The notes under the pieces are model-generated. The model made no database searches and had not been told where the DNA came from. It saw only the letters and a list, made by a program, of their open reading frames with translations. A DNA stretch of 25,849 nucleotides from IMG/VR virus record IMGVR_UViG_2909246061_000004, one strand, 5' to 3'. This document shows, piece by piece, positions 6,060 through 22,541 of this stretch. The stretch is from a virus (Duplodnaviria; Heunggongvirae; Uroviricota; Caudoviricetes). The position numbers and the translations under genes were made by a program. The stretch's first letter is position 1. The number at the start of each line of letters is the position of its first letter.

Positions 6060-6074
6060 GGTAATGACTCCAAC

Positions 6075-6578
6075 TTATTGATAGTGTTTTATGTTCAGAT
6101 AATGCCCGATGACTTTGTCATGCAGCTCCACCGATTTTGAGAACGACAGCGACTTCCGTCCCAGCCGTGCCAGGTGCTGCCTCAGATTCAGGTTATGCCG
6201 CTCAATTCGCTGCGTATATCGCTTGCTGATTACGTGCAGCTTTCCCTTCAGGCGGGATTCATACAGCGGCCAGCCATCCGTCATCCATATCACCACGTCA
6301 AAGGGTGACAGCAGGCTCATAAGACGCCCCAGCGTCGCCATAGTGCGTTCACCGAATACGTGCGCAACAACCGTCTTCCGGAGCCTGTCATACGCGTAAA
6401 ACAGCCAGCGCTGGCGCGATTTAGCCCCGACATAGCCCCACTGTTCGTCCATTTCCGCGCAGACGATGACGTCACTGCCCGGCTGTATGCGCGAGGTTAC
6501 CGACTGCGGCCTGAGTTTTTTAAATGGCGGAAAATCGTGTTGAGGCCAACGCCCATAATGCGGGCGGTTGCCCGGCAT
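6075..6578 (-). CDS. insB: IS1 InsB (transposase C-terminal frame)
   Basis: 167-aa ORF matching remembered IS1 InsB. Confidence 0.9.
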
Positions 6579-6772
6579 CCAACGCCATTCATGGCCATAT
6601 CAATGATTTTCTGGTGCGTACCGGGTTGAGAAGCGGTGTAAGTGAACTGCAGTTGCCATGTTTTACGGCAGTGAGAGCAGAGATAGCGCTGATGTCCGGC
6701 AGTGCTTTTGCCGTTACGCACCACCCCGTCAGTAGCTGAACAGGAGGGACAGCTGATAGAAACAGAAGCCAC
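6497..6772 (-). CDS. insA: IS1 InsA
   Basis: 91-aa [43 protein letters not shown]... matching remembered IS1 InsA. Confidence 0.9.
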
Positions 6773-6827
6773 TGGAGCACCTCAAAAACACCATCATACA
6801 CTAAATCAGTAAGTTGGCAGCATCACC

Positions 6828-6836
6828 TACAACGGC
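6828..6836. repeat. IS1 target-site duplication, right copy (TACAACGGC)
   Basis: Identical to 6051..6059. Confidence 0.85.
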
Positions 6837-7286: not shown

Positions 7287-8156
7287 TCAGATATCTTCAT
7301 ACTGTACGTAAGAAATATTTGAGCCTCTGATACCATAATCTTCTAAACTGCCTGATTTTTTCTCACCTCTATATAAAGCAACTATCCATCGAGCATTTTC
7401 TTGGATGCTTTTATTTATTTCAGTAAAGTATTCACCGTCAACTTCGGCGAGCGAGTGGCCTAAAACGATGACCTCGTCCACATTTTTAAGCGATGAGAAA
7501 AAAACGTTTTCTTCTTTAATTATGTCTTCGCTGGGCTTGAATGTATTACCGAAGTATTCGTTTATTCTGTCGTATGCCTCTGCTATTCTTGTATCTTGAT
7601 CCGGTCCTATATATGGATTTAGTGACTTTTCCACCCTAAAACTATGACCAAGTATGAGATCGTCATCGTAACTACAATTGCCGTGAATATGTATGATTTG
7701 CTCGTCTGGAACGGCATAGATCTGCTGCAAGGTATTTGTATAATTAAATGAAAAATAGATGCTTTCTCTTGGTATGGGCGGGATGTATTGCTTAGGATTG
7801 TAAGCATCGGCTATGTTAATCCCTTTAACCCAATCAGCGAATTGCTCCTTCAAACGAGCTGACAGCATTTGTGTGATTTTATTTACTTCATATTGGTAAT
7901 CGTGATGATAAGCATCGCTCCAATCATCGGTATTGTATGAAGCCAAAAATATCTCACTGTTTTGAAGGATAAGCTCATAATCAATTTCACCTAAAGCATT
8001 TTCTAACTCATTCCACTCGTCCCCAGCAGGAATGTATTCTTCTATCGCGTCATATAGATCTTGGTCATTTTTTTCTACATACGACTTAAAGTGCTTGTAT
8101 CCTGTTGGTAAGCCATGACGCATGTCAAATCCATTTCCTATTATGTAAAGCCTCAT
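7287..8156 (-). CDS. AbiH-like abortive-infection protein (290 aa)
   Basis: Start at the ATG at 8156 with AAGGGA RBS 8 nt upstream; N-terminus MRLYIIGNGFDMRHGLPTGY carries the IGNGFD-x-HGL motif remembered for the AbiH family; AT-rich gene inside a prophage. Confidence 0.5.
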   Translation of the reverse strand: MRLYIIGNGFDMRHGLPTGYKHFKSYVEKNDQDLYDAIEEYIPAGDEWNELENALGEIDYELILQNSEIFLASYNTDDWSDAYHHDYQYEVNKITQMLSARLKEQFADWVKGINIADAYNPKQYIPPIPRESIYFSFNYTNTLQQIYAVPDEQIIHIHGNCSYDDDLILGHSFRVEKSLNPYIGPDQDTRIAEAYDRINEYFGNTFKPSEDIIKEENVFFSSLKNVDEVIVLGHSLAEVDGEYFTEINKSIQENARWIVALYRGEKKSGSLEDYGIRGSNISYVQYEDI

Positions 8157-8470
8157 TGTTTTTCCCTTAGTCGAATTGTATAAAAATACTAACATGGCCT
8201 GCTCCACGTTGACTACTATCCCCTCCTTTGAGTAATGCCTTCATCAGATGTAACAACATTTGCGAGCTTCCACAGTTCGCTCAAAGCGGACTAGAAGGTT
8301 AGCTTGCGTCGGACTTGGCGTATTTAAAGAAGTGCTGGTGGAGACTGGTTGTTGTGTTCCATTTCTACAGAACAAAATCACAGAAACTATACCCAATAGT
8401 TATATTGAATCAATGATGAGACAGCCTCATATTTATCAGGACTGGTGTACGTCCAATACAGGAGGTTGTC

Positions 8471-8560: not shown

Positions 8561-8771
8561 TTTTATATTGGCGAGGTGACGTGAGTTAAGTAGAATTGCT
8601 GCGGGTGCTTGAGGCTATCTGCCTCAGGCATGAACACCAAAGGCAGATAGAGAAAAGCCCCAGTTAACATTACGCGTCCTGCAAGACGCTTAACATTAAT
8701 CTGAGGCCAATTTCATGCTAGACACATGTAGGTTAGCCTCTTACGTGCCGAAAGGCAAGGAGAAGCAGGCT

Positions 8772-8927
8772 ATGAAGCAGCAAAAGGCGATGTTAATCGC
8801 CCTGATCGTCATCTGTTTAACCGTCATAGTGACGGCACTGGTAACGAGGAAAGACCTCTGCGAGGTACGAATCCGAACCGGCCAGACGGAGGTCGCTGTC
8901 TTCACAGCTTACGAACCTGAGGAGTAA
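8772..8927 (+). CDS. hokD: Hok-family type I toxin (51 aa), HokD/RelF-like
   Basis: MKQQKAMLIALIVICLTVIVTALVTRKDLCEVRIRTGQTEVAVFTAYEPEE matches remembered HokD; AAGGAG RBS; structured leader upstream and terminator downstream. Confidence 0.85.
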   Translation: MKQQKAMLIALIVICLTVIVTALVTRKDLCEVRIRTGQTEVAVFTAYEPEE

Positions 8928-9665: not shown

Positions 9666-10715
9666 GTGCGGGTATTACTTCGACCTGTTCTGGTACCGGA
9701 ACTCGGGCTGGTGGTCGTTAAGCCGGGCCGTGAATCCATGCCGGTATTCCACAATACCCGGGTACTGGTGGAGCCGGAACCGAAAAGCATGCGTAATCTG
9801 CCGTCCGGGGTCGTTCCTGCCGTTCGCCAGCCGCTGGTGGAAGACAAAACATTGCTGCCGTTTTTCAGTAACGCACGGGTAATTCGTGCTGCTGGTGGTG
9901 CTGGTGCATTGTCTGACTGGCTGTTGCGCCATATTAAATCCTGCCAGTGGCCACACGGCGATTATCATCACAGCGAAACCGTTATTCACCGATATGGTAC
10001 CGGCGCAATGGTGTTGTGCTGGCACTGCGACAACCAGCTGCGTGACCAGACATCCGAATCACTCGAGCAACTTGCTCATCAAAACCTGTCAGCATGGATG
10101 ATTGACGTCATCGGTCACGCAATAAGCGGTACGCAGGAGCGTGAATTATCTCTGGCTGAATTATCCTGGTGGGCGGTCCGCAATCAGCTGGCGGACGCGC
10201 TACCGGAAGCGGTATTACGTCGCTCGCTGGGATTACCAGCGGAAAAAATCTGCTCGGTGTACCGCGAAAGCGACATCGTACCGGGAGAGCAGACCGCCAC
10301 CAGCATATTGAAACAGCGCACAAAAAATCTTGCACCGTTGCCTCACGCCCACCAGCAACAAAACCCATCACAGGAAAAGACGGTGGTAAGCATCACCGTT
10401 GATCCAGAGTCTCCGGAATCTTTCATGAAGCTGCCTAAACGTCACCGGTGGGTTAAGGAGAAATACACACGCTGGGTTAAGACACAGCCGTGTGCTTGCT
10501 GCGGTATGCCAGCCGACGATCCGCATCATCTGATTGGTCACGGGCAGGGCGGAATGGGAACCAAAGCACATGATCTCTTTGTTTTGCCTTTGTGCAGAAA
10601 GCATCACGACGAGTTGCATACGGATACCGTGGCATTTGAAGAGAAGTATGGCTCCCAACTGGAGCTGATTTTTCGATTTATCGATCGCGCGCTGGCAATT
10701 GGTGTGCTGGCCTAA
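9666..10715 (+). CDS. DUF968-type nin-region protein (YdfU-like, 349 aa), GTG start
   Basis: GGAGG RBS before the GTG at 9666; C-terminal Cys/His cluster ([18 protein letters not shown]...CRKHHDELH) typical of DUF968; same length as remembered YdfU. Confidence 0.55.
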
Positions 10716-10732
10716 TTTTGTGGAGTAAGTTG

Positions 10733-11110
10733 ATGCGTGATATTCAGATGGTTCTTGAGCGTTGGGGGGCATGGGCGGCTAATAATCATGAAGATGTGAC
10801 CTGGTCGTCCATTGCCGCCGGTTTTAAGGGATTAATTCCTTCAAAAGTAAGATCTCGTCCGCAATGCTGTGACGATGACGCGATGATCATTTGTGAATGT
10901 ATGGCTCGCCTGAAAAAAAACAACAGCGATTTACATGATTTATTGGTGGACTATTATGTCGGCGGCATGACTTTTATGGCGCTTGCACATAAGCATGGGC
11001 GATCTGATTGTTGGGTTGGCAGGATGCTCCAGAAAGCTGAGGGCGTAGTGGAGGGCATGCTGATGGTGTTGGATCTCCGATTGGAGATGGATGCTGATTG
11101 TTCGAAATAA
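10733..11110 (+). CDS. Late-gene antiterminator Q (phage 82/21-type, QuuD-like)
   Basis: [31 protein letters not shown]... matches the remembered Q-family N-terminus; located immediately before a terminator and the lysis region. Confidence 0.7.
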
Positions 11111-11122
11111 TTAAAGGAAAAG

Positions 11123-11151
11123 TTGCTGTCTGATTTTCATTAGTCTAACAT
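11123..11151 (+). promoter_or_regulatory. Candidate late promoter pR' (TTGCTG-N17-TAACAT)
   Basis: Sigma70-like hexamers between the Q stop and the downstream terminator; positional analogy to lambda pR'. Confidence 0.2.
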
Positions 11152-11210
11152 TTTAAATGTTGGAATCGCAACGTAGTTATTATCATATAACAGCTTGTTT
11201 CCTGATTTAG

Positions 11211-11237
11211 CCAGCCTCCCCAAAGGCTGGTTTTTTT
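11211..11237 (+). terminator. Rho-independent terminator, likely tR' (target of Q antitermination)
   Basis: CCAGCCT-CCCCAA-AGGCTGG hairpin followed by TTTTTTT, about 100 bp after the Q stop. Confidence 0.5.
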
Positions 11238-11265
11238 CTAATAAGTATCATTTCGGGTGGGGATT

Positions 11266-11790
11266 TTATTGTTTAACCCATAATAGTTCATTGACATTGA
11301 ATCCCAACTTTTGAGCGGTACGCACATAGTCTGCTTTTACATTATCTGGAATAGTTTGGGTCCTTGCCAGAATCCATAGGTATTCTCTGTTCGGACCACT
11401 GACAAGAGCATACTTATACTCATCATCCAGTTTGATTACATTATAGCCACCATAGAAGGGGCCAAAAAACGAAACTTTCAACGCTGCAGTTTTAGTATCT
11501 CCAGTAAAGTATGCTTTACCTTCGCTCTCGCTCCATTTGTTTTTCGTTGGATCGTATCCACGGTTAAGTACGCGAATCCCTCCGTCGTTCCGTTTTTCAT
11601 AAGTAGCGCTGACCTGTTCCAGACCACGTTCGAACCAGTTCTCGAGGCGAGCTATTTCATACCATTTTCCGAGGTAGCGGTTGGCGTCAAAATTTGTAAT
11701 CGGCTGCACACCTTTAGGTGGTGTCGGGGCCTTACATGCTATAAGAGTGAAAGAGAGTGCAATGCCAGTCAACACAGGCCATAACTTCAT
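11266..11790 (-). CDS. blc: Outer-membrane lipocalin Blc-like lipoprotein (cargo gene)
   Basis: Signal peptide with lipobox LIAC, then NFDANRYLGKWYEIARLENWFERGLE and SFFGPFYGGYNVI motifs matching remembered E. coli Blc. Confidence 0.7.
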   Translation of the reverse strand: MKLWPVLTGIALSFTLIACKAPTPPKGVQPITNFDANRYLGKWYEIARLENWFERGLEQVSATYEKRNDGGIRVLNRGYDPTKNKWSESEGKAYFTGDTKTAALKVSFFGPFYGGYNVIKLDDEYKYALVSGPNREYLWILARTQTIPDNVKADYVRTAQKLGFNVNELLWVKQ

Positions 11791-11982
11791 AATAAATCCT
11801 GTACTTTTGATAGTTGAGAGTAAGTATGAAAGATAGATGAGTACGACCGATCACTTAAAGAACTTTCCTACTATATTAGGAATAGTCAATAACAGAAAAA
11901 TTGTCAGTGATGAAGCCAGAAAGGCAATTTAGTCCGTGCACTACAAAGTTTATGTGTTAATGAATTAGTCAAGGGGGAGGAA

Positions 11983-12942
11983 ATGATAAAAAAACCTGTG
12001 ATTGGGATCAGCGGTTGTTTGGGCGGTTCTGCTGTTCGTTTTGATGGTGGTCACAAAAGAGATGACTTTTTAATGGACAAATTAGTGGAATGGGTAACAT
12101 TCAGACCAGTATGTCCGGAAATGGCTATAGGGCTGCCAGTTCCGCGTCCTGCTCTACGACTTGTGCGCTCGAAGCAAGGAAATATACGGATGTGTTTCAG
12201 CCACGACCAGAATGAGGATGTGACAGAGAGAATGACAGAGTTTAGTCGTTCTTATATGGACAAATTAAAGGATGTATCGGGGTTTGTGGTTTGTGCTAAA
12301 TCTCCCAGCTGTGGCATGGAGCGCGTGCGTGTCTATGATGAAAATGGTAATCGAGGTCGTAAAGATGGAGTGGGACTATTTACGAGCACTTTGATGGAAA
12401 AGTTTTCCTGGCTACCGGTTGAAGAGGATGGGCGATTACATGATCCAGTGCTTCGTGAGAATTTTATTGAAAGAGTTTTTGCTTTGCATGAGCTCAATCA
12501 CCTTTACAAGGAGAAATTATCAAGAAGAGAGTTATTAGCTTTTCATAGTCGTTATAAGCTTCAGTTGTTGGCGCATAGCCAGGCAGGCTATAAAGATATG
12601 GGACCATTTGTGGCTGCAATACACGAGTGGGCGGACCTTGAATCATACTTTGAGGTGTATCGTGATAATCTGATGGCGATTCTCAGAAAACCAGCATCAC
12701 GTAAAAATCACACGAATGTGCTGATGCATATACAGGGGTATTTTAGTAATTACTTAAGTACACGCCAGCGTAAAGAGTTGAGCGAGGTTATACTTAACTA
12801 TCGCTTTGGCACATTGCCTCTTCTTGCGCCGTTGACTCTGCTGAAGCATTATCTGGGTGAGTATCCTAATGATTACTTGCTTACACAGAATTACTTCGAT
12901 CCCTATCCGGAAGAACTGGCTCTAAGACTGATGGTGAATTAA
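11983..12942 (+). CDS. DUF523-DUF1722 two-domain protein (TudS/RudS-like putative thiouridine desulfidase)
   Basis: ATG with GGGGGAGG RBS; N-terminus IGISGCLGG..VRFDGGHK typical of DUF523, C-terminal half resembles YbgA-like DUF1722; domain call from memory. Confidence 0.5.
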   Translation: MIKKPVIGISGCLGGSAVRFDGGHKRDDFLMDKLVEWVTFRPVCPEMAIGLPVPRPALRLVRSKQGNIRMCFSHDQNEDVTERMTEFSRSYMDKLKDVSGFVVCAKSPSCGMERVRVYDENGNRGRKDGVGLFTSTLMEKFSWLPVEEDGRLHDPVLRENFIERVFALHELNHLYKEKLSRRELLAFHSRYKLQLLAHSQAGYKDMGPFVAAIHEWADLESYFEVYRDNLMAILRKPASRKNHTNVLMHIQGYFSNYLSTRQRKELSEVILNYRFGTLPLLAPLTLLKHYLGEYPNDYLLTQNYFDPYPEELALRLMVN

Positions 12943-13348
12943 CTGTATGCGATATCATCTGAAAGTGATGAGTTCCTGTATGCAGGATATTTACAATCGT
13001 AAAAACTACGCTATGATGCTCATAGTGTCAGTTTTTATAAAAATCCTGTTCACGCTAAAGAAAACATTGAGATGCAATTTAATGTTGGTAAACATACCAG
13101 CCCCAAAAGATTTTATTCAATCTGTTTTTATATGAAGATATTTCAAGTGAATATAAAGAGCATATAATATTATTATTGCACGCAGCTATTATAATATAAC
13201 AGATTAGTTTAATGATTTGTTTTTTGTGAGTTAAACACATGGTTTTATAGTTGTGATGCAATGAGATTTTCCTTATTGTTGAACTGGCGAATATTGATTT
13301 TCCACCTATACTTACCTGGTGTAACCCCAATGATATCAGGTGGATAAT

Positions 13349-14062
13349 ATGTCATACATATGTTCTATCATTTTGGTGTTGAACTCGTTTGGTGTCCGAA
13401 TTGGTAAAGAAGATATTTTGTTTAAAAAAGGAAATGCTGTCCTCATTGAATACAATTTAAAAGATCTTTTTTCGTCAAATACAGATCATCTAATGATCGT
13501 AGATGTTGAGGAGAAAACAGTTAATGATTTCTTTAAAAACTACACACTCTCACCTTTTTCTGTAAGAAGGTTTTATCCGTCATACTTGATAGTAGAATGT
13601 GAAGATTTTTCATTGTTAAAGAACTTGGTTGCATGCTTGAATTGTGATAGCAAAACCGTGGATGTAGTTAGAAATCAAATATCACTTGCATGTCTTGCTG
13701 TCTTATCTTCAGAGAAAATAGTGCAAAGTTTTTTGTTCGGAAGTCTTAATAGCTTAGGTTGTAAAGTTAAGGCTATTATTCACTCGGATATCTCAGCGTC
13801 ATGGAGACTTTGTGATATATCTTCAAGATTATATATGAGCGAGAGTTTGTTAAAAAGAAAATTAAAAGACGAAGGATTATCGTTTAGTAAATTAATTCTT
13901 GAAGAACGAATGATGATGGCGCAAAGATTATTGATCTACAGTAACCATACTGTCGGCAAGGTGGCGGGAATATGCGGGTATGACAATGCATCATATTTTG
14001 TAAGTGTTTTTAGAGGATATTTTGGTGTGCCTCCGCACCAATATTTATCAAGATTTTCTTAG
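13349..14062 (+). CDS. AraC/XylS-family transcriptional regulator, AppY/GadX/Rns-like
   Basis: ATG at 13349 with AGGTGG RBS; N-terminus MSYICSIILV resembles AppY; C-terminal double-HTH region (KVAGICGYDNASYFVSVFRGYFGVPPHQY); very AT-rich upstream region and AT-rich coding sequence. Confidence 0.7.
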   Translation: MSYICSIILVLNSFGVRIGKEDILFKKGNAVLIEYNLKDLFSSNTDHLMIVDVEEKTVNDFFKNYTLSPFSVRRFYPSYLIVECEDFSLLKNLVACLNCDSKTVDVVRNQISLACLAVLSSEKIVQSFLFGSLNSLGCKVKAIIHSDISASWRLCDISSRLYMSESLLKRKLKDEGLSFSKLILEERMMMAQRLLIYSNHTVGKVAGICGYDNASYFVSVFRGYFGVPPHQYLSRFS

Positions 14063-14131
14063 AAGATATGATGTGATGGCATTTTATAAAGTTATTTTTT
14101 GAAGTGTAAGATTATACGATATTTTTAGCTA

Positions 14132-14160
14132 CGCCAGAATAATTGCTGGCGTTTTTCTTT
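14132..14160 (+). terminator. Rho-independent terminator after the AraC-family gene
   Basis: CGCCAG-loop-CTGGCG hairpin followed by TTTTTCTTTTT. Confidence 0.45.
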
Positions 14161-14252
14161 TTGAATAGATGTTCGGGCCTTACGCTAATGTAACTTCTTT
14201 CCTTCTTCGAACCAAACCGTGTACACCATCCGTTATCTGCGGAGGTGAGGCT

Positions 14253-14468
14253 ATGAAATCCATGGATAAGTTAACAACGGGCATCGCCTACAGCACCTCT
14301 GCAGGCAGTGCTGGCTACTGGTTTTTACAGTTGCTCGATAAAGTCACGCCCTCACAGTGGGCGGCAATAGGTGTATTGGGTAGTCTGGTATTTGGCATGC
14401 TGACGTATCTGACAAATCTTTATTTCAAGATTAAAGAAGACAGGCGTAAGACTGCGAGAGGAGAGTAA
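14253..14468 (+). CDS. Pinholin (phage 21 S21-like), dual-start MKSM motif
   Basis: [66 protein letters not shown] closely matches remembered S21; GGAGGTGAGG RBS. Confidence 0.8.
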
Positions 14469-14472
14469 TCCA

Positions 14473-14780
14473 ATGACTCAAGACTATGAACTGGTTGTGA
14501 AAGGAGTCCGTAATTTTGAGAATAAAGTTACGGTAACTGTAGCCTTACAGGACAAAGAACGCTTTGACGGTGAAATTTTTGGCCTGGATGTCGCCATGGA
14601 CCGTGTTGAAGGAGCTGCGCTGGAGTTTTATGAGGCAGCAGCCAGAATGAGCGTCCGGCAAGTCTTCCTGGAAGTAGCAGAAAAATTGTCAGAAAAAGTT
14701 GAGTCTTATCTGCAGCATCAGTACTCCTTTAAGATTGAAAATCCTGCCAATAAGCACGAGCGTCCTCATCATAAATATCT

Positions 14781-14784
<4 letters not shown>
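14473..14784 (+). CDS. YdfR-like protein between holin and endolysin (103 aa)
   Basis: Position and length match remembered Qin ydfR; no function inferred. Confidence 0.45.
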
Positions 14785-15808
<1,024 letters not shown>

Positions 15809-16171
15809 GGTAATATTAAATCGGAACATTTACATCGCGGAATGTAAAATTTAAATAAAAAGGACTCTTCCATGAGCCAAAATTCCTGAAATCTTAAGGG
15901 TAAGATAAAAGGTCTTAATCAGAATGACACGTTATTATTAATAAATAAAGCTATTCTTTCATTGCTGTGTTTTTCTTTACAAAAGTAATCCTTGCTATGG
16001 GTGGTTAATCATGCGTTAATGGTGTTCTGGTTTGTTACAAATTTATCTGAAGCAGTCATTGTTATAATTTTATTATTTGTACCTCTTGAGATTTCCTTGT
16101 TGGTTTTTCTCTCTGATATTTTTTTTCGGACCATTCTGCCCAAGGGCTAATTTCTTCAAAAGGTAATAATT

Positions 16172-16384
16172 ATGTCTAACAAAATGACTGGTTTAGTGAA
16201 ATGGTTTAACCCTGAAAAAGGTTTTGGTTTCATCACGCCGAAAGATGGCAGCAAAGATGTGTTTGTCCATTTCTCAGCAATTCAGAGCAACGATTTCAAA
16301 ACATTAACTGAGAATCAGGAAGTTGAATTTGGTATTGAGAACGGACCTAAAGGTCCTGCCGCTGTTCATGTAGTGGCGCTTTGA
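16172..16384 (+). CDS. cspI: Cold-shock protein CspI
   Basis: [53 protein letters not shown]... matches remembered CspI; long AT-rich 5' leader typical of csp genes. Confidence 0.85.
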
Positions 16385-16591
16385 GGTAGACAATATTACA
16401 AACCATATTCACTTTAGATGCCCGTGTTGTCATGGTTCCCAGTATAGAACATCATCTTTTGATGTTTCTGACATGAATCCTTTCGGGGCAAAATGTATCT
16501 TTTGTAAATCAATGATGATTACATTTGATAATATTTCACAATACTTAAATGCCAGCCGTCTGTCGTTGGATTTAAAAAAGTGAAAATGAAG

Positions 16592-21966: not shown

Positions 21967-22541
21967 TGGCATTCAGAATGAGTGAACAACCACAGACCAT
22001 AAAAATTTATAATCTGCTGGCCGGAACTAATGAATTTATTGGTGAAGGTGACGCATATATTCCGCCTCATACAGGTCTGCCAGCAAACAGTACCGATATT
22101 GCACCGCCAGATATTCCGGCAGGCTTCGTGGCTGTTTTCAACAGTGATGAGGCATCGTGGCATCTCGTTGAAGATCATCGGGGAAAAACCGTCTATGACG
22201 TGGCTTCCGGCGACGCGTTATTTATTTCTGAACTCGGTCCGTTACCGGAAAATGTTACCTGGTTATCGCCGGAAGGGGAGTTTCAGAAGTGGAACGGCAC
22301 AGCCTGGGTGAAGGATACGGAAGCAGAAAAACTGTTCCGGATCCGGGAGGCGGAAGAAACAAAAAACAACCTGATGCAGGTAGCCAGTGAGCATATTGCG
22401 CCGCTTCAGGATGCTGCAGATCTGGAAATTGCAACGGAGGAAGAAATCTCGTTGCTGGAAGCATGGAAAAAGTATCGGGTATTGCTGAACCGTGTTGATA
22501 CGTCAACTGCACAGGATATTGAATGGCCAGCACTGCCGTAG
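21966..22541 (+). CDS. Tail-fibre assembly protein Tfa
   Basis: [43 protein letters not shown]... typical Tfa; its start overlaps the tail-fibre stop by 1 nt. Confidence 0.8.

Follow-up and report, generated by a model that had tools for sequence, protein, structure and literature searches.

The gap between the antiterminator gene Q and the lysis genes of lambdoid phages is, as a textbook rule, a slot for genes that affect the host, and it is the position of the Shiga toxin (Stx) genes in Stx phages. Genes related to those studied here have been described piecemeal. The lipocalin gene blc was listed as a moron, or cargo gene, in over 50% of the lambda phages from infant guts (Mathieu et al., Nat Commun 2020, PMC6969025). 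RudS_vir (H3V29_gp66) of Escherichia phage 1H12 lowered the 4-thiouridine (s4U) content of tRNA when overexpressed in Escherichia coli; the same study states that E. coli lacks RudS and used BL21(DE3) as its host (Jamontas et al., NAR 2024, PMC11417400). Among prophage-borne AraC-family regulators, PatE and PsrB switch on gadE and hdeAB, and repression of type III secretion by PsrA and PsrB goes through GadE (review PMC10877973). Here we analyzed a 25,849-nucleotide stretch of viral DNA (IMG/VR record IMGVR_UViG_2909246061_000004; hereafter, the window), in which an initial annotation had placed three cargo genes at positions 11266-14062, between Q and the holin gene. We conclude that this segment is probably a composite block of morons lodged in the Q-holin gap of the lambdoid late operon of a defective Qin-type prophage, consisting of a blc-like gene, a rudS gene and a gene for a regulator of the PatE/Psr type.

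Gene content and position of the segment

We found three intact open reading frames (ORFs) with Pfam and NCBIfam domains in the segment, flanked by Q and its terminator on the left and by the holin on the right. This agrees with the initial annotation down to the nucleotide, as the lipocalin ORF on the minus strand has its stop at 11266 and the AraC-family ORF has its stop at 14062. Pfam, NCBIfam and PHROGs place none of the three products in a structural or lysis family, and all three fall into PHROG families of unknown function.

The leftmost gene (11266-11790, minus strand, antisense to late transcription) encodes a 174-residue protein that had been described as a reverse-oriented, Blc-like lipocalin lipoprotein, a description that our analysis bears out. 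The protein contains a Lipocalin_2 Pfam domain (E = 7.5e-43), passes the NCBIfam cut-off for the Blc subfamily (NF007786, 312.6 bits against a cut-off of 267) and matches the E. coli Blc structure (PDB 3mbt, E = 8e-67). Its N-terminus, MKLWPVLTGIALSFTLIAC followed by KAP, reads by eye as a signal peptide with the lipobox LIAC and Cys19. On these features the product is predicted to be a lipoprotein lipocalin of the outer membrane, belonging to the Blc subfamily.

The middle gene (11983-12942, plus strand) encodes a 319-residue protein in which a TudS-type [4Fe-4S] desulfidase domain (PF04463, 2-thiour_desulf/DUF523; residues 7-149, E = 5.8e-40) is fused to a DUF1722 domain (PF08349; residues 192-309, E = 9.4e-40). 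Both domains of the DUF523-DUF1722 protein first annotated here are therefore present, and the name can be refined: because this fusion is the architecture called RudS (PMC11417400), we assign the product to the RudS tRNA 4-thiouridine desulfidases on the basis of its sequence. All catalytic residues are kept, namely Cys12, Cys44, Cys110, Glu46, Arg55, Ser107 and Ser109; the three cysteines align with Cys10, Cys43 and Cys104 of TudS (6z92), and the residue numbering agrees with Table 1 of PMC11417400. The protein is 91.9% identical to its counterpart in phage Lambda_2E9, and Lambda_2E9 and 1H12 give the same DNA match to the window (91.1% over the same 1,941 bases). YbgA of E. coli K-12 corresponds to the DUF1722 half only (49% identity).

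The third gene (13349-14062, plus strand; GC content 0.31-0.35) encodes a 237-residue AraC-family regulator with matches to the Pfam families HTH_18 and HTH_AraC, the former covering the C-terminal, double-HTH AraC domain (E = 3.1e-16). Translation most likely starts at the ATG at 13349, preceded by the Shine-Dalgarno (SD) sequence AGGTGG at 13338-13343, and not at the GTG at 13340. The initial annotation called this protein an AppY-like AraC regulator. Membership in the AraC family stood up to our analysis; the likeness to AppY proved imprecise, as identity to AppY is 29% and PatE (48%), PsrA (37%, full-length) and GadW (33%) are all closer, with YdeO at 28%, so we rejected orthology with AppY. 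The best NCBIfam match is YdeO, at 114 bits far under the cut-off of 348. Across all 237 residues, identity to Sakai ECs_0287, which we take to be PatE (Z0321 in OI-8/Sp1), is 48% (E = 2e-77). The DNA-binding half is 65% identical to PatE, 54% to PsrA and 38% to AppY. Given the overall identities of 48% to PatE and 37% to PsrA, the protein is placed by sequence in a third subgroup of prophage PatE/Psr regulators and is not an orthologue of either. We also considered orf242 of Salmonella SPI-2 as a counterpart of this gene and rejected it, since orf242 encodes the MerR-type regulator MlrB and is not homologous. As a side observation, psrA of Sakai Sp4 (ECs_1087, 28677-29390) is annotated with 195 residues, and its reading frame continues upstream as far as an ATG from which the protein would have 237 residues; the extended N-terminus, MVVVCSVIM..., matches the conserved start of the family, and the annotated start looks too far downstream.

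The position of the three genes is defined on both sides by well-recognized elements. On the left, Q (10733-11110, plus strand; Pfam PF06530, Phage_antitermQ, E = 1.6e-50), whose RefSeq start maps to 10733, encodes a protein that is 86% identical to QuuD of DLP12 and 79% to Q of Sp4 (BLASTP), and that belongs distantly to the Q21 family (PDB Q21 6p18, E = 4e-9). A tR'-like intrinsic terminator (11209-11238, plus strand) lies 99 nucleotides past the Q stop and 28 nucleotides from the 3' end of blc. It has a 9-bp GC-rich stem, a 6-nucleotide loop and seven U (-14.9 kcal/mol, z = -4.28 by terminator scan and folding) and is conserved in phages IdasGreatGrand and Lambda_2E9. On the right, a P21-type class II holin gene with an MKSMDK dual start (14253-14468, plus strand; Pfam PF04971), whose product is 93% identical to EssD and 90% to EssQ, forms the border of the variable segment, and is followed by genes for a DUF1327 protein, a lysozyme and a DUF2514 protein (rzpQ in RefSeq). 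The rudS and regulator genes lie on the late strand and blc on the opposite one.

Comparison with related prophages showed that the content of this segment varies. DNA homology to K-12 Qin breaks off at 10715, where ydfU ends, and picks up again at 14224, 29 nucleotides ahead of the holin start; at this junction K-12 Qin has a different, 250-residue Q followed by ynfS, cspF, cspB and ynfU. Homology to DLP12 is lost at 11092, within the 3' end of Q, and returns at 14233, with nmpC in between. The gap of Sakai Sp4 holds a CAAX protease gene, psrA and ileZ-argN-argO. Phage phiSTEC1575-Stx2k has the order DUF968, Q, a PsrA-like AraC gene (protein 89% identical to PsrA), three tRNA genes, stx2A, stx2B, iraM and holin. 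The Q-holin gaps of Qin, DLP12 and the Stx phage thus each have a different content, and the earlier statement that the window genes occupy the position of the Stx genes is verified by direct comparison, since stx2AB lie in the same gap of phiSTEC1575-Stx2k. The cargo is absent from, or replaced in, related phages at the same position, as expected of morons.

The window itself is a defective (cryptic) Qin-type prophage of E. coli. Many complete genomes contain DNA 100% identical to positions 10500-15000 (Megablast), and in many strains with this identical DNA RefSeq annotates the same genes. Strain ECCWS199 has a prophage collinear with the window, whose left part carries dicB/DicF, replication genes, hokD, ydfU, Q and the three accessory genes, and whose right part carries essQ-type lysis genes, cspI, truncated packaging and tail genes and ydfJ. 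In a near-identical strain the terminase, portal and tape-measure genes are truncated, which makes the prophage defective.

Linkage, selection and origin of the cassette

The cassette travels in a fixed arrangement. The order Q(+) blc(-) rudS(+) araC(+) holin(+) was found in 70 of 80 IMG/VR contigs, the other ten being cut by contig ends. In the 71 of these 80 loci with a Q detected ahead of the cassette, Q is 95-99% identical, and the holin is 87-100% identical wherever it was detected; on these identities, Q, its terminator and the cargo move as a unit. The same order occurs in viable phages, namely IdasGreatGrand (94% DNA identity) and the Lambda_2E9/1H12 group, and strain EC974 has it on a lambda-like backbone that carries rusA-ylcG upstream. 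Of the 5426 complete E. coli genomes, 1152 contain a part of the cassette and 888 contain 80% of it or more, at several chromosomal positions. Four matches to plasmid records, of 0.28 to 4.9 Mb and thus chromosome-sized or very large, gave no evidence of ordinary plasmid carriage. Two short contigs of a 'Candidatus Nanosynbacter' metagenome-assembled genome (L057 and L062) also carry Q, blc, rudS, the AraC gene and the holin, with RudS and Blc 92-97% and the AraC protein 85% identical to those of the window; these Saccharibacteria copies are almost certainly misbinned E. coli phage DNA.

All three cargo genes are under purifying selection, with ratios of nonsynonymous to synonymous substitution (dN/dS) of 0.08-0.23 for blc, 0.11-0.24 for rudS and 0.21-0.25 for the regulator gene. 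The three fall into two modules. The GC content is 0.42-0.47 in blc-rudS and 0.29-0.35 in the regulator gene together with its 400-bp upstream spacer, against 0.45-0.55 in the flanks. Synonymous divergence (dS) from Lambda_2E9 amounts to 0.17-0.29 in blc-rudS and reaches 0.60 in the regulator gene. In the alignment with the same phage a block of 90% identity ends at 13173 and a block of 79.8% identity starts at 13254, the break being visible in the 13100-13250 region. The AT-rich regulator gene appears to be a separate, faster-diverging module, a division that appears to be new. A hairpin terminator after rudS (12999-13038, plus strand), with an A-tract before it and a U-tract after it (-17.6 kcal/mol, z = -6.97), marks the approximate right edge of the blc-rudS module.

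We next compared the module with chromosomal rudS genes, using one genome per species. Such genes are found in Citrobacter, Enterobacter, Leclercia, Klebsiella, Pectobacterium and others, at 66-76% identity, and 41 of 62 rudS loci in Enterobacterales other than E. coli have a divergent blc homologue (68-80%) 0.2-1.6 kb upstream. None of these loci has Q or the AraC gene nearby. In Citrobacter sedlakii and one other Citrobacter, blc and rudS are immediate neighbors, the arrangement seen in the phage, and their surroundings are those of an ordinary chromosome. This pairing and this adjacency indicate that blc-rudS is an ancestral chromosomal pair of Enterobacterales whose two genes were probably captured together, which also appears to be new. 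In Enterobacter and Leclercia (for example, locus L026, 3021-5960) the neighborhood consists of blc (minus strand), an MlrA-like MerR regulator gene, a transthyretin/HIUase-like gene and rudS; this conserved four-gene group may form a unit that responds to light or stress, much like the LitR-phrB-rudS operon of Pseudomonas. On the same chromosomal evidence, the phage most likely picked up an existing blc-rudS pair without the MerR regulator.

Expression and possible functions of the cargo

The anatomy of the junction is consistent with expression of the cargo either from its own promoters or by Q read-through, as first proposed. Two candidates for the late promoter PR' were found, both weak, at 11082-11111 (promoter scan, 9/12) and at 11123-11151 (read by eye, 8/12). 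The Q-proximal leader at 11111-11238 would yield a short RNA of roughly 80-120 nucleotides in lysogens, at a position equivalent to that of lambda 6S RNA and of the small RNA StxS of Stx phages; the leader has no Rfam family match. Over the whole cassette, the Rfam search gave nothing at gathering score and one weak match (11196-11239), which is the terminator itself, and no tRNA genes were found. The divergent blc-rudS intergenic region (192 bp, 11791-11982) presumably holds the promoters of both genes; its sequence is shared among the phage copies and does not align with the chromosomal Citrobacter copies. In Salmonella, MlrB/MlrA represses orf319 (RudS_ST) through an MlrA-type operator. For lack of evidence we rejected this type of control for the window gene, as the intergenic region contains no TGTACA-N12-TGTACA site with up to 3 mismatches; over the whole window such sites are fewer than expected by chance.

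The regulator gene is preceded by an AT-rich region (13039-13348, plus strand; GC content about 0.29-0.31) with a candidate promoter in the scan (-35 at 13224-13229, -10 at 13246-13251), and the last ~100 nucleotides before the gene are conserved across diverged phage copies. The small ORFs at 12947-13135 and 13079-13330 lie in AT-rich spacer, have no family match and were treated as spurious. The SD sequence AGGUGG (13338-13343) can pair with UCCACCU at 13301-13307 or with UUACCUGGUGU at 13312-13322, two stretches that do not change between diverged phage copies, in contrast to the loop. Translational control of the regulator by such a hairpin, perhaps by temperature, is possible but unproven: its fold energies are no better than those of shuffled sequences (z = -0.3 to -1.7), and the 80 viral loci are too similar to show any covariation. 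Downstream of the gene an intrinsic terminator (14131-14162, plus strand) with a 7-bp stem, 5 GC pairs and the tail TTTTCTTTTT (-11.3 kcal/mol, z = -2.4) ends 91 nucleotides before the holin start.

The promoters, expression pattern, regulator targets and host benefit that we infer are as follows, the course of transcription being deduced from the anatomy and from knowledge of lambdoid Q systems. In the lysogen, transcripts from PR' would stop at the tR'-like terminator and the cargo would be read from its own presumed promoters; with rudS and the regulator gene each ending at its own terminator, the lysis genes would stay silent. Upon induction, Q-modified polymerase would pass all three plus-strand terminators toward the holin, and its transcript would contain rudS and the regulator gene as sense RNA and blc as antisense RNA. 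Blc would be exported as an outer-membrane lipoprotein. The [4Fe-4S] cluster of RudS, held by its three cysteines, is expected to convert s4U at position 8 of tRNA (s4U8) back to uridine; the resulting tRNA would be free of the chromophore behind cross-linking and growth delay induced by ultraviolet A (UVA). By analogy with PatE and PsrB, the regulator is predicted to activate the acid-resistance genes gadE and hdeAB of the host.

Several observations weigh against this reading of the segment as host-directed cargo. The blc-rudS intergenic region contains no consensus-like sigma-70 site at 9/12 or better, and the scan gave no confident promoter for either gene. Because the prophage is defective, Q read-through may never occur in the window. 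RudS_vir was the least active on tRNA among the RudS proteins tested, and its activity is known from overexpression (PMC11417400). The regulator is frameshifted or lost to insertion sequence (IS) elements in some strains, and its targets may differ from those of PatE, as it is only 48% identical to PatE overall and 34% in the N-terminal half. Moreover, the best chromosomal RudS match is 76%, and with no close chromosomal donor the capture of the blc-rudS pair is deduced from synteny and is not a traced event.

The absence of a convincing rudS promoter would also fit a different role, in which the cassette consists of auxiliary late genes serving the phage. Q read-through would then be the main source of expression for rudS, and perhaps for the regulator gene, which would come first among the sense genes of the late transcript. 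Stripping of s4U would keep translation going for late proteins in cells damaged by sunlight or ultraviolet light, a function partly compatible with host-directed cargo. The two genes are co-oriented with the late operon directly behind PR'/tR', the cassette invariably occurs with one Q allele and is kept in viable phages, and RudS overexpression shortens the UVA growth delay (PMC11417400). We nevertheless consider this role unlikely. A terminator of its own behind each sense gene is the layout of autonomous morons, and the late transcript would read blc in antisense. RudS can prevent future cross-links but cannot repair existing ones, so that late expression would come too late, and the cassette is intact in defective prophages incapable of a burst.

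It is very improbable that the segment is functionless, hitch-hiking DNA decaying in a cryptic prophage. The defective state of the prophage, with truncated terminase, portal and tape-measure genes in a near-identical strain, would suit such decay, as would the finding that some strains have IS insertions in the cassette or a truncated form of it; BL21 (NZ_CP010816.1 1557354-1558243) is one of them and retains blc and only the first ~150 nucleotides of rudS. Against this, the three ORFs are intact in the window with dN/dS of 0.08-0.25, their order is fixed in 70 of 80 viral contigs, infectious phages carry the cassette, and the catalytic residues of RudS are all kept. Likewise, a defence or superinfection-exclusion island, in which RudS for example altered tRNA against incoming phage, has very little to recommend it: prophage accessory slots often house defence genes and this prophage has an AbiH-family gene some 3 kb further upstream, but none of the three proteins matches PADLOC-DB, none has a nuclease, ATPase or toxin domain in Pfam, and all three have housekeeping-type chromosomal homologues in non-phage contexts.

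A bolder proposal can be made for rudS, which we regard as rather unlikely. The phage enzyme would erase host s4U8 and so abolish both the UVA growth delay and the stringent arrest, changing the response of the lysogen to sunlight. Without s4U8, irradiated cells could go on to mount the SOS response, induce the prophage and make late proteins; a link between s4U, growth delay and SOS was reportedly made in older work of Caldeira de Araujo and Favre. If this were true, tRNA s4U content and UVA behavior would be prophage-determined, strain-variable traits, as about 1 in 6 E. coli genomes carry the gene, and blc, the ancestral neighbor of rudS, would belong to the same light or envelope-stress response.

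Elsewhere in the prophage, two differences set the window apart from the otherwise identical ECCWS199: an additional IS1 (6061-6828), and the absence of an ISVsa5 that interrupts the lysozyme gene of that strain. The 768-bp insertion at 6061-6828 contains ORFs of 91 and 167 residues, recognizable as InsA and InsB, by which we identified it as an IS1 copy; it splits a hypothetical gene adjoining the AbiH-family abortive-infection gene (about 7287-8195, minus strand). Rfam matches at gathering level lie at 644-695 (the small RNA DicF), 8603-8777 (the sok antitoxin RNA of hokD), 16026-16411 (a cspA-type thermoregulator leader before cspI) and 22309-22507 (IS009 RNA).

Comparison with described cargo genes

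What the locus adds to the described systems is the naming of RudS, the placement of the regulator in the PatE/Psr group, the two-module structure with its boundaries, the chromosomal ancestry of blc-rudS and a figure for prevalence. Three genes that are vaguely annotated in thousands of genomes thereby receive precise names. The prevalence corrects the view that E. coli lacks RudS, in that 16-21% of complete E. coli genomes have a phage-borne copy, and BL21, the expression host of the RudS work, has a truncated rudS only. Differences between strains in tRNA 4-thiouridine, UVA growth delay and the handling of 4-thiouracil may therefore depend on prophage. The PatE/Psr family rewires acid resistance and type III secretion in enterohaemorrhagic E. 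coli (EHEC), and the branch found here is common in commensal and extraintestinal strains.

Gene by gene, the closest likeness is to RudS_vir of 1H12, which has the same TudS-DUF1722 fusion of 319 residues with the cysteine triad, Glu46, Arg55, Ser107 and Ser109, and the same neighbors, with Q and blc upstream and the AraC gene and holin downstream. The difference lies in the carrier, as 1H12 is an infectious lambda-like phage whereas the window copy, about 8% diverged, sits in a defective Qin-type prophage. The window Blc is 96% identical to the Lambda_2E9 copy but only 58.6% to the K-12 chromosomal Blc encoded beside ampC; the lipocalins paired with chromosomal rudS in Enterobacter, Leclercia and Citrobacter, at 76-80%, are closer to it than the K-12 protein. 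The regulator shares with PatE, PsrA (Z1789/ECs_1087) and PsrB (Z2104) of EHEC O157:H7 a length of about 237-247 residues, a C-terminal AraC helix-turn-helix, prophage carriage and the conserved N-terminus M..CS[VI]I. Genes for PsrA and for its Stx2k-phage homologue occupy the same Q-holin gap as the window gene, unlike patE, which is located at a prophage end. AppY of DLP12 is likewise a prophage-borne AraC-family protein of similar length from the GadW/YdeO clade, but its gene lies at the prophage end beside ompT and not at a Q-lysis junction.

As for the slot itself, the cargo of Stx phages and of other lambdoid phages is bounded in the same way, by the 3' end of Q and its terminator on the left and by the holin ribosome-binding region on the right. 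The content varies between otherwise homologous prophages, stx, nmpC of DLP12 and cspB/cspF of K-12 Qin being examples, as it does here. In contrast to Stx-phage cargo, the window segment has no toxin and no tRNA genes and carries one gene in antisense, and each of its sense genes ends at a separate terminator. Expression of stx, by comparison, relies mostly on Q read-through. Together, these comparisons confirm the textbook rule for the Q-lysis gap. Two of the three genes had already been described in phages sharing this cassette, and the case is one of ordinary, largely documented phage-borne host-fitness genes, known in kind and published in parts.

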